64,000 nucleotides of DNA from Chloroflexi bacterium ADurb.Bin180 (GCA_002070215.1 MWCV01000009.1:21778-85777), one strand, 5' to 3'. Shown: positions 4,907-44,204, numbered from the stretch's first letter. A program made the numbers and translations. Notes: generated from the letters alone by a model not told the origin.

Positions 4907-4946
4907 CTTCCTCCCTCTCTCCTCATCGCGGCACCGCTAGTTACTG

Positions 4947-11762: not shown

Positions 11763-11811
11763 TCGCGCTATTCCGTCGGCGGAGCGTCGGCCTCCAGCCG
11801 CTCCAGCGTCT
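11763..11811. repeat. 49-bp direct repeat, copy 1 (3' tail of the DUF3427 remnant); copy 2 is at 18863..18911
   Basis: 'tcgcgctattccgtcggcggAgcgtcGgcctccagccgctccagc' at 11763-11811 matches 18863-18911 with 2 mismatches. Both copies encode the C-terminal '...LERLEADAPPTE*' of a minus-strand ORF. Confidence 0.8.
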
Positions 11812-12105: not shown

Positions 12106-12138
12106 CTAGGGCTCCTCGTGCTCAAGCACCCCGCGACA

Positions 12139-13242: not shown

Positions 13243-13332
13243 CGCCCGTTCATCCTCCCTCAGCATTGTAAACATGGACGCTATCGTACGGTCGGCGGCT
13301 ACGGCACGAGAGCTAGTATGCTGTCGCCACGT

Positions 13333-13884: not shown

Positions 13885-13964
13885 TCTCCGTTCATGTCGC
13901 TTAGCCCTTCCGTGGCCGTCCGCCTTCTGGCGCCAAGAGCGCCATCGGCCTCGGAGACTACCCC

Positions 13965-27800: not shown

Positions 27801-30800
27801 CAGACCGGGGCCGTATCCCCGGCCGATGGGTAGATGTTGGCAGCGGTGCTGGCAGAGACCGTCTCGGCGTAGGCATAGCCGGATGGCAGAGTATCGGTCA
27901 GCCACACGTTGTAGGCGGGCGGGCCGTTGTTGGTGAGGGTTACGGTGAGCACGCCGCCGCACTGGTGGAGCTGCGCTGGCGGCACGTCGGTGGTCAGCCC
28001 CGGCGGGTCAATGACTGGCCTGGTGCGCAGGGTGGAGTGCGCTGTATAGATCTGCTTGCAGGTCGTCTCGGGGCAGCCCCAGGTGGTGGTCATCCAGTTG
28101 GTCGTGTCGACCGCGGTGCAGGCGCCGCTGTTGACCGTGGCCGTGATGTAGGCGGTCCACGAGCTGTTGGTCAGCGTGCCGACGTTCCAGGCAATGACCT
28201 GTCCGCTCTGAAAGCTGGGTGCCGGGCTGGCCGCCACGTAGGTGACGTTGGCCGGCAGCGTGTCGGTGACCAGCGTCTGGTAGGCCGGGGTCTGGCTGCT
28301 GTTGGCCACGGACAGGACCCAGTTGACCGCGTCGCCCGGCTCGGCATAGATCATCGCCGGGTTCTTGGAGATGGTGACTCGCGGCGGGTCAGCCACGAGA
28401 GTGTAGCGGCTTTCGGCCGTGGGCAGCAGGTTGCCGCAGCGGTCCACATAGCTGGCATCGACGACCAGGTGCCCGCCGGCAAAATCGCAGTTCACATAAA
28501 CGCTGTAGCGAATCCAGACCGTCTGGTGCGGGTAGAGCCGCGCCAGAGCGGCGATCTGGCTGGAGGTCCACACCAGCGGGCCGTTCGGCGCGCCGGAGGG
28601 ATCAGAGCCGGCAATCCAGCCGCTGACGGGCGGGGTGGTGCCTTCGCCGATGGCGTACTCGGTGGTGCCGGTCTGGTAGGCCAGGCCGGTGGCCAGGGTT
28701 TCGGTGACCGCGGCCGAATAGACGCTCATCAGGCCAGCGTTGCGCACCGTGGCCGTGACCGTGCGCGTGGCGCAGGTCTGCACCGGTGAGCGCATGATGG
28801 TGGTGTTGAGCAGGGCCGTCACCGGCAGCTCGACGTGCGAATGTTTGACCGGCAGCACGTCGCAGGTGTGGCCCAGGCAGTTCTGGAACCCGCGCAGGGT
28901 GTTGGTCAGGTTGTTGCAGCTCAGGATCTCGGCGACCAGGGTGATCGTGTAGCGCTCGCCGGACTCGATGGCCAGGTCGGGCCAGGTAATGACGTTGCTG
29001 CTGGTGATGGGCACCACGCCCTGTGCCGAGCCGTGCGTCGACAGCACCTGCGAGCTGAGGTAAGCCAGGCCGCTGCCCAGCTCATCGACCAGGGTGATGC
29101 CGTGCACAGCGCCGGCACCAGAGTTGATGGCCGTCAGCGTCCAGGTGACCGTGTCTCCCGCCGCATAGATCACTTCGGGGAACTTGTACAGCAGGGGGGT
29201 CCAGTCCCAGGCCGTGGCCGAGGTCGACGTGCTGGACGAGCAGCGGTCGTCATAGTTCTCGTCGTTGGAGCAGAGGTTGTCGAAATAGACCGTGGCCGTC
29301 AGTTGCCCCTGGGTATCGCAGCGGCGCTGCGTGGGGAACCACATCGTGGCCGTGGTAGCCGTGGCAAAGGCATCGCCGTAGTACACGTCAAAGCCCAGGC
29401 CGTCGGAGATGACCATGACCGGCGTCACCCCGCCGAATGCTGGCGGGCCCAGTGGAGAGAACGAGTTGACCGCCACGCGCATTCGCACGTCATAGGCCGG
29501 AGTGGCACCGCGGGTCAGGGTGATGGTGGGGGTGTACGGAGCGCAGTCGACCACCACGGCGGGCACGCCGCTGATGGCCACGCCCACGGTGGGCGCCGTC
29601 ACATCAAAGAACACGCCCTCGGCCGTGACGCCCGTGTCGCAGGCGGCGCACCAGAAGGTGCCGCCCGCCCCCACGTTGAGGTAGGACCAGTCGTACACGT
29701 TGCGGCCGGCGCAGCCCGTGTCGACCACCGTGGCCCGATAGGTCACGACCATCGTGGCCCCGGGCACAGTCACCGCACAGGTGGGTGAGATGTTGTTGAG
29801 CACGAGCGGATTGGTGCTGGCCACGCTAAAGGTGGCCGGGCAGCTTGTGGCGCCGTTGCTGATGTTGATGGCCGCGCTCCCGCCCACATAGACCAGCGAG
29901 CTCAGCGCTTCGGTAAAGCTCATCCGGCTCCACGCCGGCACCGTGATGTACGAGGAGGCGAACTGGAAGGTGTTGGTAAAGTAGCGCGTGGTGCAGGCCT
30001 CGGCCGCTGCTGGCGAGACAGCCTTGGCTGACGTGGTGCCCCGCTCGCACTGTACATAAGTAGTGGTCGTGCTGGTGCCGTTCACGTTGCAGCCCTGGCA
30101 GTCGCTGCCACTCGCGCCCAGAGTGTTGACTACCGTTTGCCCGCAGCAGGAGCAGACCTCCGGACAGGAAGCGCCGGGGCCAAAGACTACCGTGCGCGAC
30201 CACGGCGAGGTGCTGGTGGTCCAGGTGATGGTGTAGCGCCCGTTGGCCGCGACCACCGTTCCGCCGCCGGCATCGAGCAACTGATAGCCGCAGCCGGCCT
30301 GGAACACGTCGGTGATATAGACCATGCTGGTCAGGTTGGCCGACACCACCGAGAGGGTGTAGGTGATGCGGTCTTCAGCATAGACTTCGGACGGGCCGGT
30401 CTTGGTCACCTGGAGCGAAGGTGTGGCTCCGGTAACGCTCCACGAGCCGCTCTTGGTGGGGAAGGTAAAGGGCGAGGCGCAGCCATCGGGAAAGTTATAG
30501 TACTGCGCCGTGAACAGCAAGGGCCCGCCGGACACGCCGCAGGGCGGTGTGGGCAGGGACAGGGTAAAGGTCAGCACATAGGTGCTGCCCTTGGGAATAT
30601 CGGGCAGATGGAACGCTCCGCCGCTGTAGGGCGCGGAAGAAGCCGTGAGCACCAGCGGCGAAAGGTTGACGCTGAGGGTGGGCGTGTACGCGGTGCCGTC
30701 GCCCGAGTTCACCACCGGTATCTGGAAGGTGCCGCTGCCGGCGCAGTAGCTGATGTTGATCGCCGGCAGGGTATAGTCCAGCGATGGTGCGTCGAGGCGC

Positions 30801-31663
30801 AGGTCCACTGCTGCCTTGGCATACTGCGTCTGGCAGGGGCTGCCGTTGCAGCCCCAGTGGGCCCAGGCCTCGTTCTCCAGGTTGGCGCAGGAAACGACCC
30901 TGGCGCTGAGGCTGAAGGTGTACACTTGGCCTGGTGCCAGGGAGGCGTAGGAGGTGCTGGTGGTGCCGGCCACGAACTGCAAGCCTGAGCCGAGCGCGTC
31001 GGTGACCACCACGTTGGAAACGCGCCCGTATCCGGTGTTTTCGATGTACACCGTCCAGGTGACAATGTCGCCGAGGCCGGCCTTGATCACTGCCGGTTCC
31101 TTACGCAGGGTGATGGCGCCCGGCAGCACGTCAAAATCAAGACGCCGCACGAACAGGTCGTTCTGGGCGTCGGTGATGGTCACCTGGTTCTGGCCCGATG
31201 GCGCGGTGCAGGTAGCGTTGTAGCCAAAGCTGCGCGACGTCGACTGGCCCGGTGCCAGACTGGCCACCGTCGCCGTCCACGAGGTGGGCGTAAAGCCGGC
31301 CGGCATCGTGTCCGTGATCAGCACGCTGGTGGCGGTGATGGTATCGTTGTTGGTAATAAAGACGGTGTAGGTGACCCGGTCGCAGATCTCGACCTTGGTC
31401 GGACCTACCAGGGTGATGCGCAAGTCGATGTCGGGGGCTTGAGCGCCGGCATCGCCGTTCCTGGCCGGCGCCGTCGACGGCGCTGGCGGTTGATGCTGCG
31501 GGAGGAATGATGCCGGAGGTAGAAAGAGCGGGGCGCCGCTCTCTGGCGCGGCAACGGCCGGCTGAGAGAGCACCGTGCCGGCCAGCGCCACCAGACCCAG
31601 GAATGTGATGGCGGCGATGAAGAACAGCACAAAAGACCCACGAGACTCACCCTTGGTTCTCAT
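18869..31663 (-). CDS. giant secreted/surface adhesin-like protein (DUF11 repeats, Cna-B/SdrD-B-like domains, GEVED-motif domains, Pro/Thr linker, DNRLRE-like C-terminal domain)
   Basis: 4265 aa from the ATG at 31663, with a GAAGGGGG SD. It opens with a signal-peptide-like '[33 protein letters not shown]'. The ORF track extends it to 31750. DUF11-like blocks such as '[28 protein letters not shown]' recur. Cna-B-like blocks such as '[36 protein letters not shown]...[15 protein letters not shown]' recur, as does the 'NGEVEDYVL' motif. A PTPTPT linker lies at ~19560-19650. The C-terminus is '...[30 protein letters not shown]...'. Confidence 0.85.
   Translation of the reverse strand: [4264 protein letters not shown]
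20700..24150. repeat. four tandem ~860-bp (~290-aa) repeat units inside the giant gene, each encoding a GEVED-type domain plus a Cna-B-like domain
   Basis: The DWGDLPD-encoding string 'gggcaggtcgccccagtc' occurs at ~21555, ~22420, ~23280 and ~24140. Units 1 and 3 are near-identical at the nucleotide level. The 80-mer 'gtcacggtgatggtggcgctgcggccgggcacgagcggcgtggcaaagatcacgccgtcttcgtcgtcgggcacgccgtt' is exact at ~22195 and ~23915. Confidence 0.85.
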
Positions 31664-31809
31664 GAGACCCCCTTCGCACAACGGTTGTGTTACTGCCAGA
31701 CATACTGTACTCCGTTTGTCCGTTTTTGCCAAACTGGCCATTTCGCGCATTGGGGCGATCGGGTTATAATCTCGCCCAGTCTATCGGTGAAGGGAGGTGC
31801 ATCGCGTCG

Positions 31810-33342
31810 ATGTCACCGGGCAAAATCATCTCCAACTTTTCCCTCTCCAGCCTGGACGGCGACCCCGCCGACAAGACCGCCCTGCTCATCAATCCGCCGG
31901 TCTATGACACCCAGTACTGGGCGCGCTGGTCGCAGCCCTATGGCCTGCTGCGCATCGCCAGCCTGCTCCGCGACGCCGGCTACAAGCGCCGCGAGCTGTA
32001 CGACTTTATGGAAGTGGACCAGAAAGGCCACGTGCACCACCACCGCATCTCGGCCCACGAGTCCTACGCCGAAAAGAGCGAGCCCACCAAGCCGTGCACG
32101 CCCTGGCGCGTGGCCAAGGATGATGCCCGCATCGACTTCTGGAAGTGCCACTTTGGCCACCGGTGGGAGCATTTCGAGCAGTGGCTGGACGACCACGGTT
32201 ACACCGCCGATCACCCGCCCGACGAGATCTATATCTCGGCCATCATGACCTACTGGTGGGAGAGCGTGCGCGACCTGACCGCGCGCCTGCGCAGCCGCTT
32301 TGGCAAAAAGACGGTCATCATCGTCGGCGGCATCTATCCCACCCTCTGCCCGCAGCACTGCGCCGACTATACCTCGGCCGATGTGGTGGTGGCCGGCGAA
32401 GTGGCCGAGGCCAACGACCTCTGGCCCGACCTCTCGCTTTACGAGCGCAAACCCCAGTACGCCATCGTCACGCCGTCGCGCGGCTGCCCCTACAACTGCT
32501 CCTACTGCGCCCAGCGCACGATCAACGCCAGCCGGCGCAAGGTGGCCTACCGCCCGGCCAAGGACATCGTGGCCGAGATTCGCCACCAGATTGACGAGTA
32601 CGGCGTCAAGGACATTGCCTTCTACGCCGATTTCCTGCTGTGGGATTCCGAGAGCAACTTTGAGCAGGTGCTCAAACCGCTCATTGCCGACCAGACCCGC
32701 CACGTGCGCCTGCACGCCCCCGAGGGCCTCGACGTGCGCTATCTCAACCGCTCGCAAAAGCTGGTCGACCTGATGCGCGCGGCCCACTTTGCCAAGCTCT
32801 ACCTGCCGGTGGAGAACATTGACGAGACCTACCTGCGCACGATGAACCGCCGTCATGTGCGGTTGAAGGACTTTGTCGATGCGGTCAAGGCCTGCGAAAA
32901 GGCCGGCTTCAAGCTGCGCAACCTCGAGGTCAATGCTTTTGTGCTGTACGGCCTGCCCCGCGAGTCCATCGACGGTGTGGTCAAGACGGTGCTGTTCGTC
33001 TCCGAGGTGCTGGGCTCGATCATTCCCATGCTCTTTACGCCCGTGCCGACCACCGGCATCTATCAGGACTATGTGCCGTACTTTCGCACTCGCGGCTGGG
33101 ACAAAGAGCTGCAGATGCTCAACGGCAAGGTCTATCCCTTCCTGGAGCTGAACGAGGGCTCGCTGCCCGACTATATCGACCTGCAGCGGCTGATGTTCAT
33201 GCTCAACACGCACTATCGGGATGCGTCGTTCCGGCCCTTTGCCGACAGCCGGGTCAGCAATGCCTTTCGCAACAATCTAACCAACGCCTTCTACAAGTAC
33301 ATCACCACCGGGCTCATGGAGCCGGAGTACCTGGGCTCGTAA
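31810..33342 (+). CDS. B12-binding-domain radical SAM protein
   Basis: 510 aa from the ATG at 31810, with an AAGGGAGGTG SD ~10 nt upstream. The ORF track starts earlier at 31687. The radical-SAM cluster 'CPYNCSYC' (CxxxCxxC) is present. The N-terminus 'KTALLINPPVYDTQYWARWSQPYGLLRIASLLRDAGY' is typical of the B12-binding-like domain of class B rSAM enzymes. It is transcribed divergently from the giant gene across a 147-bp gap. Confidence 0.85.
   Translation: MSPGKIISNFSLSSLDGDPADKTALLINPPVYDTQYWARWSQPYGLLRIASLLRDAGYKRRELYDFMEVDQKGHVHHHRISAHESYAEKSEPTKPCTPWRVAKDDARIDFWKCHFGHRWEHFEQWLDDHGYTADHPPDEIYISAIMTYWWESVRDLTARLRSRFGKKTVIIVGGIYPTLCPQHCADYTSADVVVAGEVAEANDLWPDLSLYERKPQYAIVTPSRGCPYNCSYCAQRTINASRRKVAYRPAKDIVAEIRHQIDEYGVKDIAFYADFLLWDSESNFEQVLKPLIADQTRHVRLHAPEGLDVRYLNRSQKLVDLMRAAHFAKLYLPVENIDETYLRTMNRRHVRLKDFVDAVKACEKAGFKLRNLEVNAFVLYGLPRESIDGVVKTVLFVSEVLGSIIPMLFTPVPTTGIYQDYVPYFRTRGWDKELQMLNGKVYPFLELNEGSLPDYIDLQRLMFMLNTHYRDASFRPFADSRVSNAFRNNLTNAFYKYITTGLMEPEYLGS
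32951..33342. repeat. direct repeat, copy 1 (the functional 3' end of the radical SAM gene); copy 2 is at 40968..41358
   Basis: ~392 bp at ~96% identity to 40968-41358, with about 14 differences. Most differences are synonymous, for example cgggatgcg versus cgcgacgcg. Confidence 0.9.
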
Positions 33343-33681
33343 AGACTGTCAGCGTACCTTTACCGCGAACGTGCCTGACGGGGCGGTCAGTTCCTTGGGT
33401 GGCCGGTCCCGTGCGTCAGGAAAAGTCGGTCCCGGTTACACATTTCGCCAGGCTGTGGAGTCCGAGTAGAATTGGTACGGGCTCAGACGTGCGACCCAAC
33501 ACATTTCGGCGCTCCTGGGGGGACGTCGTTGTGGTAGGTCGCCCAGCGATTTTAGCAGCTTGATGGCTGTCGTGCGGCGCCAGCTAACGCCGGCGATGCG
33601 AATACCGTCTTGTCGTCTGTCTTCTTGTTGCGTACCGCAAAGGTGCGGAAGTGTCTTAACTAGCAACGCAAAGGAGCTACG

Positions 33682-36600
33682 ATGACCGATACCACACCCC
33701 GAGTCACCTTTGTGCAACTCCTCGAACGCGTCAAGTCAGGCAACCATCTGCCTGATTTTTGGGCGGGCATCGACGATACTCGCAAGCTCCACATGCTTGA
33801 AAAGGCCGGCTTCAAGGATGCTCCCTCCATGGTCAAGAAGCCGAAGCGCCGAGCCAACTACCTCAGAATTCACATGCCCGCACTCACGTTTATGTTGAGC
33901 AGTGAGGAGGTGGCGCGCGATGTCGTTTTGGCGTGGCTTGCTGCAAACTCAGACCTGGAGTCTCCTCAGCAAACTGAAGCCCTGGATGACGACAGCAGCG
34001 CTCATCTACTCACGGTAAGCGTGGATTCCTGGAAGGCGTCAGGGCAGTGGTGGAAGGTAGCTCTTGCGTTCTCCACAACCATGCTGCTGGGAGAGCCGGA
34101 TGACCATGCACGCCACCAGATCAGTCAGATGCTTGACCGTTTCGAGACTGGCTTCCCCGAACTGCTCGACACATTGCGTTCAGAGCACGCATCAGAATCC
34201 AAGAACGTGAGTTTGCATCCATCCCTGGACAGACTGATGCATGAGGCCGAGAGACTGTGGCAGCTTCTCGACCAGTTGCAGGCTCAGAGGGAATCGCCTG
34301 TTGCTCTGGCTAAGGTCCCTGGCATGAGCGAACTTCCCGCGTTGGTGGCGGCGGTGACGGAAGCATACAGCAGCGTTCAAGCCGACCTTGTCAGGACGTC
34401 GCAATCGGTCGAATTACCACGCGACGTCGTACCGCCTGCGCAGTGCTCGACTCTGGAGCAACTCCGATCCGCGTATCAGGCAGTGCAGGTTGCGCTGGCT
34501 GAAAGGGAACGCACCGATAGCCTGAGGCGGCTGGCGGAGGACCGCAACCGACTGGCTGATTCGCTCGAGCCGCTGACGCTCCTCGTGAGAAAAGACGGCC
34601 GGCCCATGGCCGAACTGGAATCCGTGCGGGCGCAAGCCAGGCAAATGGCAGACAGTCTCAGGGATGCCCCGTTGGTGCCGGGTTCCGAATCCACACCTGA
34701 ACTGACCACTGACAGCAGCAAGGCATTAGTCGTGTTGTTGAACCTGGTCTCCGGAAAGCTGGAGGACGCCGAAGACTCCGAGGTGGACCATGCTTTCCAG
34801 ACGGTTGCTGACGCGCTGGGTCGCCCGTTAGCCATGGCGGCCTTGCGCGGGCTCCTCGAAGTAGCGGCTGAGCCAAGCAAGGCCAACACCGCCGTTCCGG
34901 CCGCCGACACTGCAGATGAATCGCCAAAGCGTACGCCAACGGAGCAAGCCAAAGCACCGTCGCTGGAGCCATCGGAGGTGCCCGCCACTGCTGTCGCAGT
35001 CCCATCTGTGAAGGACGGCGAACCACCTAGCTCAGGCGGACTACCGACTCAAACGAGTCCTGCAGAATCAGCAAGTGCTCCCAACGAACCTCCGCCTATC
35101 ACGGCACCATCGGGCCCTAGCTCGAACACCCAGCCTCCGGCTGTCTCCCCTGCACCCCATACCGATGAGGGCCCGACCACAGCAGGTGAGGTCGATGCTC
35201 ACTTCTGGCAGATGGTGGAGACAGATCTCCCGGCTGCCTACTGGCTTTCGAGGGCATACGAAGCTATGGAAGAGACGGCGCCTGTTCCTTCGTGGCTGTT
35301 GGCCGCTCTTCAGGGCGCTCGATGGCTCCCCGACGCCCGAGATCATGTGGCCGATGACCTTGCCGAGCTGGCATTGGTGCATGAGGTTGGTCCCAACAAG
35401 GTGCATCGCCTGATGGCTACGGCAGCATCCTTGGTACCGGCTCTTGTCTCGCCCAACACAGGCATGAGTTCGTGGCTGCACGATGCCGGAGTCGATGCAA
35501 TCTACGAGCTTGTAGAGGCAGTTCGCGCATTCGCGGCCCACGGGTATGGGCTTCGCCACGAAGATCTCACCGGAGTGGTGAGTAAGGCACAGGTCAACGC
35601 GGAAATCTCCGATGTCGTGCTGCGTGCAAGGGCTTGGCTCCAGGACGCCCCCAAGCGTAGAATGCCGTACCACCGGGCGACCGAAGTCTGGCGCGTCTGG
35701 ACCAGCCAGACAGGGCCTTTGTACCAAGTCGTCGCCCAAGTGGCGACGAACGATGAATCCACCGTGGACAAAGCTTTGGAGGCCGTCAAGGAGTGGCGAC
35801 GGCGCCCGCTAACCGAACGAGTTCGCAGAGACGATCCCTACCGGAAGAGTCAGGGGAGCAAGCCGATCATCTCCTCCTCCCTGGTGAAGCTTGTGAACGA
35901 ATCGGAAGAAGCCATCGCCGTAGTGGAGGAGTGGGCTGAGCTCCAACGGAGATCACGTGATCTTGAGGAGAGGGGCGACTGGTTCCACGAGCAGGTCACT
36001 CTTCTTGTTGAGAGCGTCAAGGCCACTCTACCTGGATGCTTGGCTGGTCTGACATCGGCTCTGGCCAACGATGCTCCGGTCGGCGAATGCGTAGCGCTAG
36101 AGGAAGTTCTTGCTTCGGTCCATGAGGTCGCGGCCCTGCTCGCGCTCGGGCCCCAACCTTCAAGGCGTCTGCCAAGGCTCACGGGCCCACTCGCCCTCCC
36201 ATCCCCCGACCTGACCGGAGGCCTAGCGCGGGCCCTCCTGTGCTTTCCAGAGTTGCAGCTGGCTGACGATGGCCAACCAACTCCTGAGGCGATGAAGCCC
36301 TTGCTGCAGCTGCTGATCGACCCGGACCTCTCCACTGCGGACTTGCGCCTCCTGCTGCGACGGTGGTTCGAATCACAGGACTACAGGTTCATCGACCAGA
36401 TTCTAGAGGCTCTTGGTGATCAAGCTGACCTAGCAGATCTTCGGCGAACCGCACGCGAGGCCCAGCGCGGCTCCGAGGACATCGTGCTGGAGAGGTGGAA
36501 CCAGGTGTCTGGCAAGCTGGCCCAGGCCGTTGCCGACGAGGTCTTGACCCCGGAGGAGCGGTCTGAGTGTGATGGCGAACTCCAGGACGTCAGGGGAGCT

Positions 36601-39600
36601 ACTGGCAGGTACAACTACCGGGTCCTCCACCAACGGCTTTCTGCCCTGGAGAATCGCGTCGATAGGGCGCGGCAAGAGAGGCTGAACGCACAGCAGCAGG
36701 AATGGAAGTCCGTCGCGGAGAGGCTGCCTAGGTCTATCACTGACGCCGCCACCCGCACACTGATCATCTCTGCTGTTGATCAATCGCTCGAGCGGCGAGA
36801 CACAGTGGTTGTCGCCGACTTGATCGCCCATCTAAAGGCTTCTCTGGATGCCGGTCACCTGCCCGATACTTCCCTCTTCATGTCGACTCGGCCGACTGGG
36901 GATGCTTTCGCCGAGTTCGTGGCCGGCGTGCCGGAGTTGAGTGAGATGATCGGCACCAGAGGTTTGGCGAAACTTGCCAACGCAATTGCTGCTGCCGGCA
37001 AGGCTGAGCGGCGAATCGGTCCGCTTTCCTTCAACCTGCCAGCGCCTCGGCTCAAGGAGGCGCGTAGCGCCTTGCTGGCTTGGAGCGAGTTGACCAGTCT
37101 TCCCGTAGATGGGCTGGTGAACCCGACTCCACTTGCCGTCGTTCTGCGCTACCTTGGCTTTACCATCAGTGGGGAGTGTGGGGAGGTCGTCGAGCAGCGT
37201 GAGCACGACCGCGACTGGTCGCACTTGACCGTGAGGATGTCCGCTGCAGACCTTTCGCCGATTCCCGCCTTCGGCTCACTTCAGGACAACCGCTACAGCA
37301 TTGTCTGCCAGTGGGAGCGACCGTCAGCTGACGTCATTGGCAGCATGTTGCGCCACCTGAGGTTGATTGGCAAGAGCGTTGTCCTTCTCTACTTCGGACG
37401 CCTGACCGTTAACCAAAGGTGGCAACTGGCACAACAGGCCCGCAAAGAACGGCTTTCTATGGCTGTGCTTGATTCGAATCTCCTGCTTTACCTGTCGCAG
37501 GAAAGGGGCTCTCGGCTGCCTGTTTTTCTGCAGTGCTCCCTTCCCTTCGCGGTCGTCAATCCTTACGTGCCCACCGGCACCGTGCCGCGCGAGATGTTCT
37601 TCGGCCGCCAGGACATGATCCAGGCTATTCAGTCGCCTTCAGGACCTGCTATGGTCTTCGGCGGTCGACAGTTGGGCAAGTCCGCCCTGCTGCGGCGCGT
37701 TCAGAACGAGTACGATCGGCCTGAACGAGAGCAGTTTGCTTTGTACGAGGACATCAAGCTGATCGGTGATCCTACCAGCCGGCAGCCCTGTGAGGCGCTA
37801 TGGGTTAGGCTCGCGGACGGTCTGATCCGACATGGGGTACTCAAGTCACGGGGCGAGACTCCAGACAAGATACTCGCACAGATCAGAGATGCCATGGAGA
37901 ACCATCCTGGTCGGCGGGTGCTCGTACTCTTGGATGAAGCCGACATGTTCTTGAAATCCGACTCTGATCAGGGCTTCACCGTGGTCAGTGAGCTCAAGCG
38001 ACTGATGGACGACACTCAGCGACGCTTCAAGGTGGTGTTTGCTGGACTCCATAACGTGCAGCAGTATCAGGGTATTCCCAACCAGCCGCTTGCGCACCTG
38101 GATAGTCTGGTGGTGAATCCACTGGAGCCGCGAGCCGCACGTCAGCTGGTGGAGATCCCAATGAGAGCGCTCGGTTTTCGTTTCTCAGATCAGCAGGCAG
38201 TTCCACGGGTTTTGGCCTACACCAACTACCACCCTGGGCTGATTCAGCTCTTTTGTCACGCGTTGGTCGAGAGGCTCCTAAGGCGCCCAGCGAGTCCTGC
38301 CGCTGACTTGGAGGTCAGGCAGAGTGACGTGGAAGACGTCTACCGCTCAGAAGAGGTTCAGCGGGCGCTCCGCGAGCGCTTTGAATGGACCCTTGCTCTG
38401 GACGCCCGATACCAGTTGGTGGCGCTGGCTCTCGTACATGATCAAATGGCCGAACACGATGGCTACGGCCGCGCCTACAGCCTGTCCGATGTGCTCTCGA
38501 TTTGTCGTGGCTGGTGGCGTCAGGGCTTTGAGAAAGTTCGCCTTGACCAACTGCAAGGCGTGCTCGATGAGATGTGTGGCCTTGGGGTGCTAGTCCGGAA
38601 CACGATAGACCATACTTATCGGCTTCGAAGCCCCAACCTGGTGCGCCTCATGGGAAGCCCAGAAGACATCGAGAATGCGCTCCTTGCCCTCGGAGATCAA
38701 CAGCCTGCCATCGAGGGGGTCATTGGCGAGAGCCACCACGCGGCGCTCGATGATTGCGCCTCTATCTACAGTCCGTTCACCTACTCTCAGGCTCGAACGC
38801 TCAATGCCAAGCGATTCGGAGTCAGCCTGATGTTCGGATCGGAAGCCCTCGGACTGGCAGACGCGAAATTGGCGTCACAGCAGTTCGTTGCGCCCGAGGT
38901 GCTGGCCGACAAGGCCGGCCGCTGGGATGAGTTGAGCTTCCTGGCTCGGTCAGGGGAAGCCATGCGTCACGCACTGCAGAAGCTCTTGGCACAGTACCTG
39001 AATGTGCCGCGGCTGGTCGCCTACCGCGAAATGCACGGCACGAGCGAGCAACTGGCTGAGCAAGTGAACTCGGCGATCGAGTTCTGCACCAAACACGCCC
39101 GAAGCCAGAGGCAGTGGTTGCGGGTCCTTCTGGCGTTCGATCCGGCGGCGACATGGGAATGGCTGAGTGTTCCCGTGGCAAGAAGACAAGAGCTCGAACG
39201 CTCGGCAGATGCCCTGGTCTGGCTTCGGCGGTGGGACGAGGATGGCCTCAAGCAAATCACGGAACAGCATGGCAAGCGAGTCAATTCGCGTGTCCTGCAA
39301 AGGCTACTGCGCGAGACGGGCGGCTGGCCCTTGCTGCTACGACGTCTTGTCGCGGGGTGGTCTTCTGAGCTGGACGATCCTGAGGAGGGGCTCGAGCGGC
39401 TCTTGAGTGACCTACTTGAGCCAAGCGGCGCGCCACCCATTCAGTTCTGGAAGTCGCTCGGAGTAATGGAAGTCCCGCTTGCCGAGCAGGTGCTTCGTGC
39501 GATCGCCGTCCTGGGAGAACCCGTGGAGCCGGGTGATCTGCCGTCACTAATGGAGGGTCAGGTGGTCCCCTGCGAAGGGGAGTGCGCATCGCTATGTGAG

Positions 39601-39696
39601 TATCTGGCACAATTGGGGGTCTTGGAGGAGTCCGGTACGGGCTTGGTAGTCGAGCCCACTGTATCGAGATTGCTCGCTGCGGTTGGGACGGCGTGA
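33682..39696 (+). CDS. giant (2004-aa) protein with a central AAA+/STAND-type P-loop NTPase domain flanked by long, mostly alpha-helical regions of unknown function
   Basis: An AAAGGAG SD lies 6 nt upstream of the ATG at 33682. The Walker A context 'FFGRQDMIQAIQSPSGPAMVFGGRQLGKSALLRRV' (nt ~37600-37700) has the FxGR...GxxxxGKS arrangement typical of STAND/AAA_16 NTPases. Walker B is 'RVLVLLDEADMF' (nt ~37915-37950). The N-terminal ~1250 aa and C-terminal ~500 aa have no motif I can recognise. Confidence 0.8.
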   Translation: MTDTTPRVTFVQLLERVKSGNHLPDFWAGIDDTRKLHMLEKAGFKDAPSMVKKPKRRANYLRIHMPALTFMLSSEEVARDVVLAWLAANSDLESPQQTEALDDDSSAHLLTVSVDSWKASGQWWKVALAFSTTMLLGEPDDHARHQISQMLDRFETGFPELLDTLRSEHASESKNVSLHPSLDRLMHEAERLWQLLDQLQAQRESPVALAKVPGMSELPALVAAVTEAYSSVQADLVRTSQSVELPRDVVPPAQCSTLEQLRSAYQAVQVALAERERTDSLRRLAEDRNRLADSLEPLTLLVRKDGRPMAELESVRAQARQMADSLRDAPLVPGSESTPELTTDSSKALVVLLNLVSGKLEDAEDSEVDHAFQTVADALGRPLAMAALRGLLEVAAEPSKANTAVPAADTADESPKRTPTEQAKAPSLEPSEVPATAVAVPSVKDGEPPSSGGLPTQTSPAESASAPNEPPPITAPSGPSSNTQPPAVSPAPHTDEGPTTAGEVDAHFWQMVETDLPAAYWLSRAYEAMEETAPVPSWLLAALQGARWLPDARDHVADDLAELALVHEVGPNKVHRLMATAASLVPALVSPNTGMSSWLHDAGVDAIYELVEAVRAFAAHGYGLRHEDLTGVVSKAQVNAEISDVVLRARAWLQDAPKRRMPYHRATEVWRVWTSQTGPLYQVVAQVATNDESTVDKALEAVKEWRRRPLTERVRRDDPYRKSQGSKPIISSSLVKLVNESEEAIAVVEEWAELQRRSRDLEERGDWFHEQVTLLVESVKATLPGCLAGLTSALANDAPVGECVALEEVLASVHEVAALLALGPQPSRRLPRLTGPLALPSPDLTGGLARALLCFPELQLADDGQPTPEAMKPLLQLLIDPDLSTADLRLLLRRWFESQDYRFIDQILEALGDQADLADLRRTAREAQRGSEDIVLERWNQVSGKLAQAVADEVLTPEERSECDGELQDVRGATGRYNYRVLHQRLSALENRVDRARQERLNAQQQEWKSVAERLPRSITDAATRTLIISAVDQSLERRDTVVVADLIAHLKASLDAGHLPDTSLFMSTRPTGDAFAEFVAGVPELSEMIGTRGLAKLANAIAAAGKAERRIGPLSFNLPAPRLKEARSALLAWSELTSLPVDGLVNPTPLAVVLRYLGFTISGECGEVVEQREHDRDWSHLTVRMSAADLSPIPAFGSLQDNRYSIVCQWERPSADVIGSMLRHLRLIGKSVVLLYFGRLTVNQRWQLAQQARKERLSMAVLDSNLLLYLSQERGSRLPVFLQCSLPFAVVNPYVPTGTVPREMFFGRQDMIQAIQSPSGPAMVFGGRQLGKSALLRRVQNEYDRPEREQFALYEDIKLIGDPTSRQPCEALWVRLADGLIRHGVLKSRGETPDKILAQIRDAMENHPGRRVLVLLDEADMFLKSDSDQGFTVVSELKRLMDDTQRRFKVVFAGLHNVQQYQGIPNQPLAHLDSLVVNPLEPRAARQLVEIPMRALGFRFSDQQAVPRVLAYTNYHPGLIQLFCHALVERLLRRPASPAADLEVRQSDVEDVYRSEEVQRALRERFEWTLALDARYQLVALALVHDQMAEHDGYGRAYSLSDVLSICRGWWRQGFEKVRLDQLQGVLDEMCGLGVLVRNTIDHTYRLRSPNLVRLMGSPEDIENALLALGDQQPAIEGVIGESHHAALDDCASIYSPFTYSQARTLNAKRFGVSLMFGSEALGLADAKLASQQFVAPEVLADKAGRWDELSFLARSGEAMRHALQKLLAQYLNVPRLVAYREMHGTSEQLAEQVNSAIEFCTKHARSQRQWLRVLLAFDPAATWEWLSVPVARRQELERSADALVWLRRWDEDGLKQITEQHGKRVNSRVLQRLLRETGGWPLLLRRLVAGWSSELDDPEEGLERLLSDLLEPSGAPPIQFWKSLGVMEVPLAEQVLRAIAVLGEPVEPGDLPSLMEGQVVPCEGECASLCEYLAQLGVLEESGTGLVVEPTVSRLLAAVGTA

Positions 39697-40967
39697 TCCT
39701 AAGCCGTGATAGATTTGAACTGCCCGGCGTCCAGTCATGGGTCGCCGGGATAGCCGATGACCTCGACAAGGGCCAGACAGTATGCCTGCTGCTCCCACAG
39801 CCAGTCGAAGCCGGATTGTTCTGGCCGCCGATTCGCGAGCGCCTGGGCAAGCTTGGAAATAGCATCGCAGAGGTGCATACGCCGGGCATTCCCACGGGTG
39901 CCAGGATGCCGTCGGAGCTTGCCAAGGCTCTAGGCGTCAAGTGGCCCGCATCGACAACTCCGCGCACGTTGCCTGAGCTTGTCCGGAACCCAGAACTACC
40001 GGGGATCATCCATCTGGAGGACTGGGCGGAACTTGCACCTGCGGCTCAGCACGAGTGGCTTACCATCGCTCGCCGCTGGGCCGACTACTCCCGGTCGGCT
40101 TCCTGCGAGGGAGAGGGCTCCACAGCTCTCCTTATCATAGCCAACGCGACCGACAACCTGCAGCCAACGCTAGACTCCGATGTGGCGTTTCGGATCCGAC
40201 TGTGGTGGCAGGTTCCGTCCGTGCTGGAGACGATGCAGCTCTGCCGCATCACAGCGGAGGGGAGTTGGCGCACTCCGCTCCACGAATGGCGGGAGCATAT
40301 ACTGCCCTCATTGGTGGCAGGTGACCTGGAGGCTGCCACCGAGATATGGGACGATTCTCTGTGGGATGTGGACTCACTTCTGCCGCGATTGGATAGCTTG
40401 GCTGAAAAGAGAGGTTGGACGCGAGGGACGATAGAGCCATTGACCAACGGGTGGTTCACCGATCAGAGCCCGGTAGTGGGTGCTGAGTCGGGCCTGGAGC
40501 CACCCCGCAGGCTCTTGAGTCTTTGGGCGCGAGGTCTGGTATGCAGCACTCTGGAGTACGGGCCCACTTTGTCACCGGTCGCGCTTGCCGTTCTGGGGAA
40601 TCGTCGTGAGATTGAGCGGCGTCTGTGGCGCGGGCAGGTGGGCCTGCTCATGCCCATAATCGACGAGCTGCGGCTCGATATCTGTGGGCGTTGGGCTCGC
40701 CGCTTCGGCGCAGATTGGCCGACGAGATGGACTCTTCCAGATTCAGAAGAGGAGGCGCGGGCGATCTACGCTAGTCCGCTGAACTGCGGCTGGGGGCACA
40801 TGGAAACGCTCCTGCGAGGTAGGGCCGAACTGATACGGGAGCGTCCTCTGCTGCCAATGATCGCGCATTCGCGCTACGTGCGCAACGAGCTGGCTCACTC
40901 TCGTCCAGTAAGGTACTATGACTTTAAGGAGCTGCTCGATGCCCGCGGGCTGCTGCCCAGGCTCTAG
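39693..40967 (+). CDS. hypothetical 424-aa protein translationally coupled to the giant NTPase gene
   Basis: Its GTG start at 39693 overlaps the upstream TGA stop (GTGA). It has no recognisable catalytic motif, only a possible degenerate nucleotide-binding-like segment 'GQTVCLLLP...ALLIIANATD'. Its stop codon sits exactly at the junction with the repeat copy. Confidence 0.7.
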   Translation: MILSRDRFELPGVQSWVAGIADDLDKGQTVCLLLPQPVEAGLFWPPIRERLGKLGNSIAEVHTPGIPTGARMPSELAKALGVKWPASTTPRTLPELVRNPELPGIIHLEDWAELAPAAQHEWLTIARRWADYSRSASCEGEGSTALLIIANATDNLQPTLDSDVAFRIRLWWQVPSVLETMQLCRITAEGSWRTPLHEWREHILPSLVAGDLEAATEIWDDSLWDVDSLLPRLDSLAEKRGWTRGTIEPLTNGWFTDQSPVVGAESGLEPPRRLLSLWARGLVCSTLEYGPTLSPVALAVLGNRREIERRLWRGQVGLLMPIIDELRLDICGRWARRFGADWPTRWTLPDSEEEARAIYASPLNCGWGHMETLLRGRAELIRERPLLPMIAHSRYVRNELAHSRPVRYYDFKELLDARGLLPRL

Positions 40968-41358
40968 CCTGCCGCGCGAGTCCATCGACGGTGTGGTCAA
41001 GACGGTGCTGTTCGTCTCCGAGGTGCTGGGCTCGATCATTCCCATGCTCTTTACGCCCGTGCCGACCACCGGCATCTATCAGGACTATGTGCCGTACTTT
41101 CGCACTCGCGGCTGGGACAAAGAGCTGCAGATGCTCAACGGCAAGGTCTATCCCTTCCTGGAGCTGAACGAGGGCTCGCTGCCCGACTATATCGACCTGC
41201 AGCGGCTGATGTTCATGCTCAACACGCACTATCGCGACGCGTCGTTCCGGCCCTTTGCCGACAGCCGGGTCAGCAACGCGTTTCGGAGCAACCTGAGCAA
41301 CGCGTTCTACAAGTACATCACCACCGGGCTCATGGAGCCGGAATACCTGGGCTCCTAG
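40968..41358 (+). pseudogene. displaced 3' fragment of a radical SAM gene (direct-repeat copy 2)
   Basis: It encodes '...LPRESIDGVVKTVLFVSEVLGSIIPMLFTPVPTTGIYQDYVPYFRTRGWDKELQMLNGKVYPFLELNEGSLPDYIDLQRLMFMLNTHYRDASFRPFADSRVSNAFRSNLSNAFYKYITTGLMEPEYLGS*'. This is about 98% identical at protein level to the C-terminal ~130 aa of the 31810..33342 product. It has no start codon or upstream part. Confidence 0.85.
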
Positions 41359-41517
41359 CGGGAATAGCCGGCGCCCGGCAATAGCGAACAAGCTCCCCCG
41401 CACGCTGGAGATTCCCACGCCCCTGGGGCGCAGCTCGGAGCTGGCAGTGACGGGCCACGACGGTCGCCGCCGAAGCAATCTCCCCCATCGTCGCCAGTCT
41501 GTCGGAGGTAGGGGCCG

Positions 41518-43593
41518 GTGACACACTATCGACAGCGGATCGTTCTTGCGGGGATCATCCTTCTTGTGCTGGGCTGCGCATGGCTCGCCTTCCCTGCCGG
41601 GAGCTTCCGCGGCGCGGGCCTGCTCCGGACGCACCTGCCTTTGCGCATCGCCTACGCCGCCGAGCTGGCCAACAGCGGTCTGCCCCTGTGGACGCCGCTG
41701 CTGTACGGCGGCTACCCCCTGCTGGCGGACCCGCAGATGGGAGCCCTTTACCCTCCCCATCTCCTTCTCTACCGCTGGCTGCCGGTGACCTCTGCCTTCT
41801 GCGTTCTCCTGGGCCTCCACCTGCTTTGGGCGGCACTCGGTTTCTATCTGCTCGCCGCGCGGCAGGGGGTGCGGCGCGGGTCCGCCCTGGTTGCGGCCCT
41901 CGTCTATTGCCTGGCCCTGGCTCTCGTTGCCCGGTTCGGTCCCGCGAGCGCCCTGGCCTGCCTGTCCTGGCTGCCCTGGCTCCTCCTGCTAACCGGCCGT
42001 CTGGCGGAGCCCTCTGGCTCATTGCCTGCAGCCCGGCAGACCTCTCTGCTAGCCCTGACCGCGGGGATGACCCTGCTGGCCGGCCCGCCCCGGCGGGCCC
42101 TGCTGTGCCTGCTGGCGGCCGCAGCGTACGGGGCATACCTGTCGCTGGCCCGCGGCCCGCGTCGTCGAACTCTCCCGGCCGTTCTTCTCCTGGCCGGGCT
42201 GCTGGCCGGAGCGGCTCTGGCCTCAGTGCAGCTACTGCCGATGCTCGAGCTGGAGCGGCTGTCCGTGCGGCCTGCGGCTCTCGACCCGGCAGCTCTCCCG
42301 GCCCTCCCTCGCTCCGCGTTGAGCGTGCGGCCGAGGTCCCTGCCCTTCCTCGCCGCGCAGACGGGGATCTACCGCATCTTGACTCAGGAGAAGGACGGCA
42401 TTCCCGCGTCCGGGCAGGTCGAGTCCTACTCCTCCAATCTGTCCCTTGTGTGGGGCCTGCCCACGGCAAGCGGCCTCGCCTCTTTGGTTCCCGCCCGCTA
42501 CGCCCGCTACACCGCTGGCATGACCTCGGCGATGCTCAACCTGCTGGGGGTCAAGTACTATCTGCTGCCCCAGGACTCGACCGCTGCCGCCTACGACCTG
42601 AACGACCCCTTCCTGTACAGTCCGCTGAACGACGTGCTGCCCACGGGGCTGAGGGTGGCCGCCGGCTTCGAGCTCGAATGGTATCTCAGCGATTCGGCCG
42701 AGCTGCGCGATGGCGAGCCCGTGGCGGTTTTCGATTACGTCACCGAGGAATCAGTTGACCTGAACGAGAATGTCCTGACCGTCGGCTCCCACGTCGCCGA
42801 CTGGGCCTATGAGCGCAGCGACGTCCGGGCGGTCGTGGCGCACAATCAGGCCCCCATCGCCCGCACCTTCCCGGCGCGCTCCGGTTCACCGCCGGAGGAT
42901 CACGTAGGCTATGTGTACCGCGCTGTGGTGCGGCTCCCCTACGCGGTACTGGTGAATGGACTGCAGATGCCGGCCATTCTGCCGCCGGACCGCATCCACG
43001 TTGAGCGGGCCACCATGATCGATGGGCAGGGCCACCGGCATCTCCTCTCGCACCTCAAGGGCCTGGGCGACCACACCCTGGCCTACCGCAGCGAGGATGT
43101 GGCCATCTTGGAGAACCACGATGTCCTGCCGCGGCTTTTCCTGGCGTACGAGGCGCGGCCGGTGCCGGACGATGCGCAGGCGCTGGCCCTTCTGCATGGT
43201 GGCCAAGTGGACCTGCAACGGGAGGTTCTGCTGGCCGCTGCGGAGGTTGCGCCTGCCCGGCCGCCGACGGCGGGAACGGAGCGGGTGGCACTGGCGGAGT
43301 ACGGCTCTCGCCGCGTGGCGGTGGAAGTGGAGGTGCCTGCCGATGGCTACCTGGTGCTGACCGATAGCTGGTACCCCGGCTGGCGAGTGTCGGTGGATGG
43401 CCGGGAGGCCCCTCTCCTGCGCGCGGATTTCCTCTTCCGCGCCGTCCACCTGACCGCGGGCGAGCACCGGGTCGAGTTCACCTATCAGCCCGAGCCCTTC
43501 CGCACCGGGGGATGGATCAGCGCAGCGGCAGCGGTCTTTGTTCTGGCGCTCTGGCTGTGGGGTGGAAAGAAGTACGGCCTGGTGGGCGCCTGA
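41518..43593 (+). CDS. YfhO-family polytopic membrane protein (putative glycosyltransferase)
   Basis: 691 aa from a GTG start with a GGAGG SD 9 nt upstream. It has multiple hydrophobic helices and the YfhO-like motif 'LPLWTPLLYGGYPLLADPQ'. The C-terminus 'YPGWRVSVDGREAPLLRADFLFRAVHLTAGEHRVEFTYQPEPF' resembles YfhO C-termini. Confidence 0.65.
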   Translation: MTHYRQRIVLAGIILLVLGCAWLAFPAGSFRGAGLLRTHLPLRIAYAAELANSGLPLWTPLLYGGYPLLADPQMGALYPPHLLLYRWLPVTSAFCVLLGLHLLWAALGFYLLAARQGVRRGSALVAALVYCLALALVARFGPASALACLSWLPWLLLLTGRLAEPSGSLPAARQTSLLALTAGMTLLAGPPRRALLCLLAAAAYGAYLSLARGPRRRTLPAVLLLAGLLAGAALASVQLLPMLELERLSVRPAALDPAALPALPRSALSVRPRSLPFLAAQTGIYRILTQEKDGIPASGQVESYSSNLSLVWGLPTASGLASLVPARYARYTAGMTSAMLNLLGVKYYLLPQDSTAAAYDLNDPFLYSPLNDVLPTGLRVAAGFELEWYLSDSAELRDGEPVAVFDYVTEESVDLNENVLTVGSHVADWAYERSDVRAVVAHNQAPIARTFPARSGSPPEDHVGYVYRAVVRLPYAVLVNGLQMPAILPPDRIHVERATMIDGQGHRHLLSHLKGLGDHTLAYRSEDVAILENHDVLPRLFLAYEARPVPDDAQALALLHGGQVDLQREVLLAAAEVAPARPPTAGTERVALAEYGSRRVAVEVEVPADGYLVLTDSWYPGWRVSVDGREAPLLRADFLFRAVHLTAGEHRVEFTYQPEPFRTGGWISAAAAVFVLALWLWGGKKYGLVGA

Positions 43594-43988
43594 GGGCGTT
43601 CACGCCTGGGCCGAGCCTTGGCTCCCCCGAGCGTAGCGAATGGTCGATGTTCATATCAACCCCATTACTCACACAGACACGATGGAAATCCGTATCTGGT
43701 CTGCAGGCAAGGTTGCGCACTCGGTTGCATAACTCCTCCGCGCTTTGCCCAACTCGTGAGCAACGCCAACCGGTTCGCTTTTCAACTTCGGCTAACACAA
43801 AGAAACGTGTCTTCCCCAGATGCAGCATCTCCTCTACTTCGGACCTGCACAGCGTGCCTTGGCAGTAGCCTAGCAGCAACACCCGAATCTGCTCTGCAGT
43901 GAAACGTCGATGTATCTGGTCCATTGATCCCTCCTACAGGTGTCGGAGGAGTCTACCACAAATCGTGGGCGGCAAGGCCCCGGCGGCA

Positions 43989-44046
43989 GTTCACTTTTCA
44001 ACCTAAAATGGTTCACTTTTGAACTGTAAACAGTTCACTTTTCAAC
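43989..44046. promoter_or_regulatory. three copies of a 14-bp palindrome GTTCACTTTT(C/G)AAC spaced 22 bp apart, a candidate operator array
   Basis: The copies are at 43989-44002, 44011-44024 and 44033-44046. The middle copy, GTTCA-cttt-TGAAC, is a perfect inverted repeat. The array sits 30-85 bp upstream of the -35 of the regulator promoter. Confidence 0.5.
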
Positions 44047-44073
44047 TTTGGATGACAAATGCAAAATTGCCTA

Positions 44074-44102
44074 TTGACAAAGCCGAAAAGTGCCGCTATA
44101 CT
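44074..44102 (+). promoter_or_regulatory. near-consensus sigma70-type promoter for the GntR regulator/catabolic operon
   Basis: TTGACA at 44074-44079, a 17-bp spacer, then TATACT at 44097-44102. It lies in a locally AT-rich segment ~100 bp upstream of the regulator's start codon. Confidence 0.5.
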
Positions 44103-44204
44103 GTGGCACAGTAGATTGTTAGACAATAGACATTGTACAAGTAGTGAGCAGAGCAGCTCGAGGGTTTACGACAACTAGCGTCAGTTTCTGAGTGGAGACT
44201 GTGC

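Follow-up and report, generated by a model that had tools for sequence, protein, structure and literature searches.

Some integrase-borne genomic islands, ICEs and prophages integrate at the 3' terminus of a protein-coding or tRNA gene, where the attachment site is duplicated as attL and attR and the incoming DNA supplies a replacement gene end. In Campbell-type integration, as with suicide plasmids, a circle carrying one homology segment becomes an insert between two direct, potentially chimeric copies of that segment, and the event can be reversed by recombination between the repeats. Displacement of a native 3' module by incoming DNA with one-sided homology has been proposed for the orphan modules of T6SS, Rhs and CDI loci (PMC5361080). 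Many defence islands occupy chromosomal hot spots without a visible mobility gene. The HEPN superfamily, which is relevant to the cargo described here, is defined by an Rx4-6H motif with a polar residue (N, D or H) after the R, and a HEPN-AAA+ arrangement of the Ava_2192 type has been described (both PMC3710099).

Here we analyze an insertion in Chloroflexi bacterium ADurb.Bin180, a member of a digester species, using a 64,000-nucleotide stretch of its DNA (the window) and related loci. The locus provides an unusually complete snapshot, with occupied and empty sites in one species and the native gene end lying beside the imported one.

The repeat-bracketed insertion

The target is an intact B12-binding radical SAM (rSAM) gene (31810-33342, + strand; 510 aa, OQB28040.1), whose Pfam matches to Radical_SAM (PF04055, 69.5 bits) and B12-binding (PF02310, 33.4 bits) place it among the B12-binding radical SAM proteins; no NCBIfam equivalog reached its cut-off. 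The same 510-aa gene is called in contigs L001/L011, and members of this widespread family are 60-95% identical. The final 392 bp of the gene (copy A, 32951-33342, + strand) recur as a direct repeat 8016 bp downstream (copy B, 40967-41358, + strand) with zero indels. The earlier note had reported this repeat correctly, but placed the second copy one base late, at 40968, and estimated ∼14 substitutions where we count 13 (96.7% identity). As the note had it, copy B directly follows the 424-aa gene, beginning at the G of its TAG stop codon. The 7,624 bp between the repeats (33343-40966) hold two overlapping genes, 33682-39696 and 39693-40967, the second reaching its stop codon at the edge of copy B. 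We note that the public record calls a 139-aa ORF (40939-41358) across copy B, although copy B is a gene fragment.

The differences between the copies comprise 10 synonymous and 2 nonsynonymous changes (N to S and T to S) and one change in the third base of the stop codon (TAA vs TAG), so that the two gene ends differ at 2 of 130 encoded residues. Codon position 3 accounts for 11 of the 13, and the NG86 method gives Sd=11, Nd=2, dS=0.129 and dN=0.0068. The resulting dN/dS of 0.053, taken with the third-position bias, shows that both copies derive from functional genes, in agreement with the coding constraint that had been proposed for them. The differences are also clustered, a feature absent from the earlier note: only one (32958) falls in the first 268 bp, followed by 260 identical bp, and the remaining 12 lie in the last 124 bp.

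The earlier note had suggested looking for an intact rSAM-to-YfhO junction in relatives. Searching the GTDB species genomes with the rSAM protein gave no hit, and the empty sites were instead obtained from cluster members. Six contigs (L013-L018), which at ∼97.5% identity to the window we treat as its own species, carry the rSAM gene, a 159-nt spacer and the YfhO gene without interruption, as does the 92% lineage L141. The two segments of the window that align to L013 overlap by exactly the repeat. Given these empty sites, the 8,016 bp are a strain-specific insertion. Copy B is followed by the same native context, the 159-nt spacer and a gene for a 691-aa YfhO-family membrane protein (together 41359-43593, + strand; Pfam YfhO), and positions 40967-43636 are 98.2% identical to L013.

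At the 13 differing sites, copy B has the empty-site state in 11 cases and copy A in 2, and copy B is therefore the native rSAM 3' end, displaced by the insertion; as the note had supposed, the downstream fragment was once part of a functional gene. Relative to L013, copy B shows 4 synonymous and 0 nonsynonymous differences, and copy A shows 13 (11 synonymous, 2 nonsynonymous), a total that includes 33189 and 33255, at which neither copy agrees with L013. At 33270, 33272 and 33279, copy A has states found elsewhere only in L006, a distant lineage (80%). Copy A, the end now joined to the intact gene, is thus a different allele, and it travels with the cassette. In contig L019, from another strain background with a different upstream gene set (a DpnII restriction-modification (R-M) system), copy A, the leader and the start of the ATPase gene are 100% identical to the window over 32821-34958 (2,138 bp), whereas the upstream rSAM sequence differs by 2.8%, with all 30 mismatches in 31776-32820. 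This identity beside diverged upstream sequence shows that the cassette and copy A spread between strain backgrounds by homologous recombination, with a crossover inside the rSAM gene. Exchange mediated by homologous recombination, one of the options raised in the note, is thus directly evidenced here as a means by which the cassette moves between strains. The checks that the note had suggested supported its interpretation.

The four junctions were also seen independently in other assemblies: partner to copy B in L002 and L003, copy A to spacer in L002 and L019, and copy B to YfhO in L012. The rSAM alleles of the species are mosaic, with clustered differences elsewhere in the gene (e.g., 32421-32460). 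The locus is a hot spot: unrelated genes follow the rSAM gene in relatives L004, L005 and L006, R-M systems lie on either side of it in other strains, and a defence island occupies window positions 1-17750. No tRNA genes were found.

The cargo and its relatives

The cargo is foreign in composition. The two cassette genes have GC3 values of 0.674 and 0.689 vs 0.877 in the rSAM gene and 0.825 in the YfhO gene, a drop of ∼0.15-0.2 that bears out an impression first gained by eye; most other window genes lie at 0.75-0.88, with the exception of GntR (0.674). The 339-nt leader (33343-33681, + strand), which runs from the rSAM stop to the ATPase gene and is identical in L019, has no homology to the native rSAM-YfhO spacer. 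It contains one promoter-like site, a sigma-70-like match at 33445-33472, and no terminator, Rfam hit or unusual fold (z-score 0.78).

The first gene (33682-39696, + strand; OQB28041.1) encodes a 2004-aa ORC/Cdc6-like AAA+ ATPase, as assigned from a Pfam AAA_22 profile match above the curated cut-off, a Walker A motif (GGRQLGKS, residues 1327-1334), a Walker B motif (DE, 1418-1419) and an AAA+ fold followed by a winged helix. Its N-terminal ∼1260 aa are poorly conserved and contain no invariant polar residue. The second gene (39693-40967, + strand; OQB28042.1) overlaps it by 4 nt and encodes the 424-aa partner, which has a degenerate, Walker-less AAA+ fold at its N terminus. In the helical C-terminal domain, R397, N398 and H402 are invariant in 11 sequences (RxxRNxxAH); the resulting RNxxxH arrangement conforms to the Rx4-6H definition of HEPN and suggests that the partner is likely an RNase. 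From the folds, this motif and the gene neighbourhood, the cargo is probably a two-component conflict (defence) system.

Neither cargo protein has a hit in PADLOC-DB v2.0.0 (E <= 0.01), which places the pair outside the catalogued anti-phage systems, and neither has one in NCBIfam, PHROGs or, by sequence search, the PDB. Searches of mobile elements gave no phage hit and weak, partial plasmid hits, and literature searches found nothing specific on a comparable ATPase/HEPN system. Pfam, NCBIfam, PADLOC and PHROGs identified no recombinase domain in either gene. The insertion shows an empty site in relatives and direct repeats containing the target gene's 3' end, and no tyrosine, serine or DDE recombinase was found in or adjoining it. 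The statement in the earlier note that no integrase is present stands for the sequence between the repeats, for the public gene calls with precomputed Pfam at ∼29.7-52 kb and for ten further large ORFs elsewhere in the window. Its suggestion that the element may be decayed finds no support, as both cargo genes are intact and full length.

Outside the species, no relative of the cargo closer than ∼40% (partner) or 36% (ATPase) identity was found. The family is sizeable, comprising 1,380 cluster representatives of the partner protein and, in species genomes, at least 540 relatives of the ATPase, and the two genes form a conserved operon in at least 44 loci from many phyla. It is without a Pfam, NCBIfam, PADLOC or PHROGs match as a family, though the window ATPase matches AAA_22. 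In 5 of 38 loci from other phyla, exact direct matches of 143, 24, 22, 18 and 14 nt lie close on either side of the pair, vs 0 of 97 controls, 38 inverted and 59 shifted, in which the longest match was 12 nt; a BLAST version of the count gave 3/24 vs 0/127. In the cleanest case, L079, the pair splits a sugar ABC operon, and a perfect 22-bp repeat corresponds to the last 19 nt plus the stop of the upstream (ABC) ATPase gene, with the right copy starting 2 nt past the partner stop. The right repeat of L094 overlaps the partner stop. A Streptomyces island with an ATPase homologue (L007) lies between 82-bp copies of a methyltransferase gene end, which differ at codon position 3 in 8 of 14 cases (dN/dS 0.12). 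None of these repeat-bracketed intervals encodes a recombinase. The repeats of L049 and L094 are real, yet their differences show no third-position bias, and the upstream ORF of L094 looks spurious. Three other loci were set aside: the 129-bp repeat of L051 is an hsdM 5' fragment beside an NN gap and probably a scaffolding artefact, and L126, whose repeat is the 5' end of the downstream gene, and L072, whose repeats are 71-75% identical, both differ in geometry.

Route of arrival

We favor, at a probability of about 0.6, a founding event in which single-crossover or one-sided homologous recombination brought in a cassette with its own rSAM end and displaced the native end, the cargo being a conflict system. 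The 8,016-bp unit, made up of the rSAM 3'-end copy, the 339-nt leader, the 2004-aa ATPase gene and the partner gene, would have inserted into the rSAM 3' end in one lineage of this Chloroflexi species. The incoming DNA would have come with an rSAM 3' end (392 bp) of its own, and recombination within this homology would have placed the imported end on the intact gene and left the native end 8 kb downstream as a fragment. This could have occurred by a single reciprocal (Campbell-type) crossover with a circular molecule or, from a linear fragment, by one homologous and one illegitimate join. By either route the rSAM gene would stay functional and the insert need encode no recombinase. Within the cargo, the ORC/Cdc6-like ATPase may bind DNA and control or sense, and the HEPN-type RNxxxH domain of the partner may act as RNase effector. 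We infer the nature of this crossover and the function of the cargo. With nothing closer than ∼40%/36% found outside the species, the founding junction is not reconstructable from a donor, which counts against this reading, as does the lack of any PADLOC, NCBIfam or PHROGs hit for the cargo. A reciprocal crossover at 33222-33261, suggested by the distant outgroups L004-L006 only, was dropped when comparison with empty sites from the same species revealed copy B as native-like throughout, and L006 was rejected as a donor-like arrangement because the large gene after its rSAM gene is unrelated to the ATPase.

Two features of the junctions also count against this explanation. The right end of the insert is the partner stop codon here and lies 0-2 nt from it in the two unrelated loci L094 and L079, a recurrence not expected of random illegitimate joins. 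Near the left edge, copy A already departs from the empty-site allele at 32958, only 8 bp inside the repeat, where copy B agrees with it; this single site is compatible with a crossover at the outermost left end of the repeat, as in a site-specific event, and a random homologous crossover would need a coincidental polymorphism. We regard as a real if minority prospect the alternative of a dedicated integrative cassette with defined ends that inserts co-directionally and site-specifically at gene 3' ends through an attP-like target mimic, moved by a recombinase in trans or by an unrecognized activity of its own proteins. The excess of bracketing repeats over controls, the gene-end repeats of L079, L094 and L007 and the absence of an encoded recombinase from all of these intervals are in keeping with such a cassette, as are the ORC/MuB/TnsC/IstB-like AAA+ folds of the ATPase and partner, whose fold relatives are transposon helper ATPases. 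These folds suit defence equally well, however, being ORC/BrxC-like, and a hidden catalytic domain is unlikely given the lack of invariant polar residues in the first ∼1260 ATPase residues. About 33 of the 38 loci have no repeat, the repeats range from 22 to 392 bp, the target genes differ and no shared end motif was seen; the copies in L049 and L094 lack the third-position signature, and a 392-bp block with 260 identical bases far exceeds what a site-specific recombinase needs. A related and somewhat more doubtful proposal is that the pair forms a self-contained mobile cassette of an undescribed kind, without a recognizable recombinase, that inserts co-directionally at a gene end or between operon genes together with a replacement gene end. 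Mobility could then come from a trans-acting host or element recombinase, from RecA acting on the carried gene end or from the ORC/MuB/TnsC-like ATPases themselves, and the range of such a cassette would take in Chloroflexota, Latescibacterota, Deltaproteobacteria, Terriglobia and Streptomyces.

That the native end was instead duplicated in situ at insertion (by staggered breaks, template switching or end joining) and then diverged by mutation or allelic recombination seems improbable to us. The single differing site in the first 268 bp would fit, and the mosaic rSAM alleles mean that copy A could have been overwritten later. Against this, 11 of the 13 differences are synonymous although one copy is a dead fragment, and two strains share 1.6 kb of the cassette without a single difference, against 3.3% divergence between the repeat copies. 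The copy-A states extend to the last codon and stop (33339, 33342), adjoining nonhomologous DNA, so that later conversion would need a cassette-bearing donor, and three of these states occur only in the 80% lineage L006. We give the least credence to an assembly artefact or mis-phasing, in which an empty chromosome and a separate (circular) molecule with one rSAM fragment and the cassette were merged. The 260-bp identical core is longer than the k-mer sizes used, and each of the Logan contigs L002, L003 and L012 ends within the repeat, which is equally compatible with an integrated form and with an empty site plus a circle; but the 86-kb MAG contig spans both copies, the 5' part of the rSAM gene runs into copy A and the cassette in L019, which comes from another sample, and in all contigs the marker 32958/40974 sits with the expected flank. 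A separate molecule would, moreover, still be the excised form of the same element.

Likeness to described systems

The ATPase/partner family is a candidate defence system that recurs as a repeat-bracketed insertion in distant phyla, and this recurrence opens to direct test whether some defence cassettes can move with no recombinase of their own. Like integrase-borne islands, the insertion lies inside a gene 3' end, leaves an intact gene with the incoming end and displaces the native end as a direct repeat; it too has an empty site in relatives, sits in a hot spot rich in defence genes and carries cargo of atypical composition. Unlike them, it shows no recombinase of the tyrosine or serine type, whether inside the insert, beside it or among the window ORFs that were checked, its 392-bp repeat with a 260-bp identical core is far longer than typical att identity blocks, and it carries only two genes. 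The locus is also exactly the product expected of Campbell-type integration, although no replicon or transfer functions are visible.

With the orphan modules of Rhs, CDI and T6SS loci it shares a conserved upstream anchor, an incoming piece that takes over the gene end and an old 3' piece kept downstream. It differs in that the rSAM gene encodes an ordinary enzyme with no relation to the cargo, and the gene is not diversified, as both ends encode nearly the same protein. The cargo itself resembles AAA+/STAND-HEPN conflict systems (Avs, BREX BrxC and the Ava_2192 type) in pairing a large P-loop ATPase with winged-helix modules and an Rx4H partner with N after R, in its sporadic occurrence across many phyla and in its neighbours, which include R-M, toxin-antitoxin, NACHT and GmrSD genes and transposases. 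The pair, without a PADLOC, NCBIfam or PHROGs counterpart, departs from these systems in placing the ATPase in the C-terminal third of 2004 aa, behind a variable region of ∼1260 aa, and in a partner that combines a Walker-less AAA+ fold with a HEPN-like domain.

The repeated gene end and the empty site

The window corresponds to contig JAKJAH010000010.1 (GCA_022707605.1), and identical proteins are on record for 'Chloroflexi bacterium ADurb.Bin180'. The terminal 392 bp of the B12-binding radical SAM gene (rSAM, 31810-33342, 510 aa), which we term copy A (32951-33342), are found again at 40967-41358 (copy B), with an offset of 8016 bp and no indels. Copy B starts with the last base (G) of the TAG stop that ends a 424-aa partner gene. 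The copies differ at 13 sites (10 synonymous, 2 nonsynonymous, and the stop codon, TAA versus TAG), 11 of them at third codon positions, and NG86 gives dS 0.129, dN 0.0068, and dN/dS 0.053, which confirms the claim of the earlier note that the end of rSAM recurs after the 424-aa gene with mostly synonymous changes. The 13 sites are clustered: after a single difference at 32958 come 260 identical bp, and the other 12 fall within the final 124 bp. The interval between the repeats holds two genes only, for a 2004-aa AAA+ ATPase and its partner, preceded by a 339-nt leader (33343-33681). The lower GC3 that had been suspected for this cassette is borne out, with values of 0.674 and 0.689 versus 0.877 for rSAM, 0.825 for the downstream membrane protein gene YfhO, and 0.75-0.88 for other genes in the window, a GntR gene (0.674) being the exception among them. 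Public annotation places a 139-aa gene at 40939-41358, over the displaced rSAM fragment and with its start within the partner gene's 3' end; this call most likely marks a pseudogene fragment instead of a true gene.

Within the 90% identity cluster to which the rSAM protein belongs, the gene for one member, P0156, was located on at least 10 contigs, which come from digester metagenomes and a MAG. In these contigs, the minus-strand gene of a 4264-aa surface protein is followed by rSAM, a 159-nt spacer, and YfhO, and nothing is inserted among them. The empty-site contig L013 matches the window at 97.5% over 21811-33338 and at 98.2% over 40967-43636, and the overlap of the two matches within L013 is exactly the repeat. 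The junction is likewise uninterrupted in L141, from a 92% lineage. The intact rSAM-YfhO junction that the earlier note had envisaged in relatives therefore exists, and we conclude that this arrangement is ancestral and that 8,016 bp were gained in the lineage of the window. At the 13 differing sites, the empty-site allele equals copy B at 11 and copy A at 2, and the native spacer and YfhO come directly after copy B, which identifies copy B as the native end, displaced downstream. The allele in copy A is not that of the empty site; its states at 33270, 33272, and 33279 are otherwise present only in L006, from an 80% lineage. A crossover at 33222-33261, derived from polarization with distant outgroups only, was rejected because closer outgroups failed to support it.

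Strain variation around rSAM

In L019, a contig from another sample, rSAM ends in copy A and runs on into the same 339-nt leader and the first part of the 2004-aa ATPase gene. Contig and window agree at every position across 32821-34958 (100% identity), and 30 of 30 mismatches are confined to 31776-32820. This pattern indicates that the cassette was transferred between backgrounds together with its gene end, by a crossover inside rSAM; mosaic rSAM alleles are visible in this Chloroflexi species. Homology between L019 and the window ends at 31763, where a DpnII R-M system replaces the surface protein gene. This end point, 47 nt ahead of the rSAM start codon, adds a third variable junction to those around rSAM, and the DpnII-type restriction enzyme and methylase (L019 1-1834) lie directly upstream of the gene.

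A second such junction lies 43 nt past the YfhO stop codon, at 43636, where homology to the empty-site strains stops. Beyond it, those strains (L013 from 13811 onward) encode an N6_N4 methylase, RE_EcoO109I, a 1447-aa surface protein, and a DDE transposase, and the window continues past YfhO with a GC-poor 611-nt spacer (43594-44204, GC 0.51), the GntR gene, and a sugar ABC operon. The distant outgroups L004, L005, and L006 (rSAM 80-90% identical) have unrelated genes past the rSAM stop codon, at which homology ends in each, namely a 1148-aa PPC/Reprolysin-like protein gene, a DUF3427 gene, and a gene for a protein of >1253 aa, respectively. No displaced rSAM fragment was seen in these three contigs. 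The end of L004 (7250-7279) matches 44011-44040 of the window.

On the other side of rSAM, a 4293-aa ORF on the minus strand (18869-31750; 4264 aa in the public record) has many SdrD_B, GEVED, and CLIPPER repeats, and its product is probably a giant surface protein; these repeats produce secondary BLAST matches to L013. Farther out lies a minus-strand defense island (1-17750) with genes for Mrr_N+DUF3427 (60-1193), an SNF2 helicase with a PLD domain (1280-4906), a DUF1156/N6_N4 methylase (4947-7865), a DUF499 ATPase (8310-11372), and a UvrD/AAA_30 helicase (13965-17750). The island is similar to DUF499-containing R-M-like systems (PMC3710099).

The cargo pair at other loci

The operon of ATPase and partner genes is conserved across many phyla: it was recovered in at least 44 loci, whose GC ranges between 0.43 and 0.70. 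The partner family numbers 1,380 representatives (E <= 0.001), and at least 540 ATPase relatives occur in GTDB species genomes, a few on large plasmids; none was found in phages. Neighboring genes include transposases, RHH/PIN, NACHT, GmrSD, and R-M, and our best guess is a putative defense role for the pair. A further large gene (∼730-1340 aa) without a Pfam match lies immediately upstream of the ATPase gene in several loci (L024, L027, L033; L007, 7683-9884); three-gene versions of the system may exist. In the Streptomyces version, L007, a partner of the 424-aa type was not detectable.

To find bracketing repeats, the 800 nt ahead of the ATPase gene were compared with the 150 nt past the partner stop. 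Exact direct matches of 143, 24, 22, 18, and 14 nt were found in 5 of 38 loci, with a maximum of 12 nt in the controls (38 inverted and 59 shifted); a BLAST version gave 3/24 loci versus 0/127 controls. The majority of pair loci have no repeat. L079 (Latescibacterota) is the cleanest bracketed case: here the pair interrupts a sugar ABC operon, with the binding protein and ATPase genes on one side and the permease gene on the other, and a perfect 22-bp repeat comprises the final 19 nt of the ABC ATPase gene plus its stop codon. The right copy begins 2 nt past the partner stop and lies 2 nt ahead of the permease ATG. In L094, the right-hand repeat and the partner stop overlap. In the complete Streptomyces genome (L007), 82-bp copies of a methyltransferase gene end flank an island containing an ATPase homologue (dN/dS 0.12; 8 of 14 differences at position 3); such third-position bias is absent in L049 and L094. 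L049 holds the same gene-end segment three times (1-275, 553-844, 8391-8556), with two of the copies nearly in tandem ahead of the ATPase gene and the third past the partner, as would be expected if insertions had followed one another at a single site; close downstream is a GmrSD_N gene. A 129-bp repeat in L051 (302-430 and 14159-14287; 97% identity, 5' part of hsdM) is probably a scaffolding artifact, as one copy adjoins an NN gap.

Origin of the insertion

All of these data fit a recombination of incoming DNA, bearing an rSAM gene end, within that end, and we favor this explanation with a probability of roughly 0.6. The incoming DNA could have been circular and entered by a Campbell-type single crossover, or a homologous anchor could have been combined with an illegitimate join, as has been proposed for orphan 3' modules at T6SS, Rhs, and CDI loci (PMC5361080). 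A site-specific cassette mobilized in trans is a less probable, tentative alternative, to which the right junction at the partner stop, recurring in three unrelated lineages, the resemblance of the perfect L079 repeat to an att core, and the compatibility of the marker at 32958 with a crossover placed at the repeat's left edge all lend weight. The absence of an integrase reported in the earlier note holds: Pfam, NCBIfam, PADLOC, and PHROGs find no recombinase, transposase, or nuclease domain in either cargo protein, and no recombinase is present in the public gene calls of ∼29.7-52 kb or in ten further large window ORFs. No tRNA genes were found, and the leader has no Rfam match, terminator, or special fold.

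Duplication of the gene end in situ is very unlikely, because the copies differ synonymously, as far as the last codon, whereas the cassette shows no differences between strains. A mis-phasing of short-read contigs over the 260-bp identical core is likewise very unlikely; the integrated form is supported by both the MAG contig and L019.

The cargo pair matches no catalogued defense system and is similar in kind to AAA+/HEPN conflict systems. In a tentative model, the ATPase (Walker A residue K1333; D1418/E1419) would be the sensor and the partner (R397/H402) a HEPN-type effector with RNase activity. The locus has the same architecture as an island integrated in the 3' end of a gene; the recombinase that defines that class was sought and not found, and we therefore do not assign the locus to it. 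It works like such an integrated island or like a one-sided homologous displacement.
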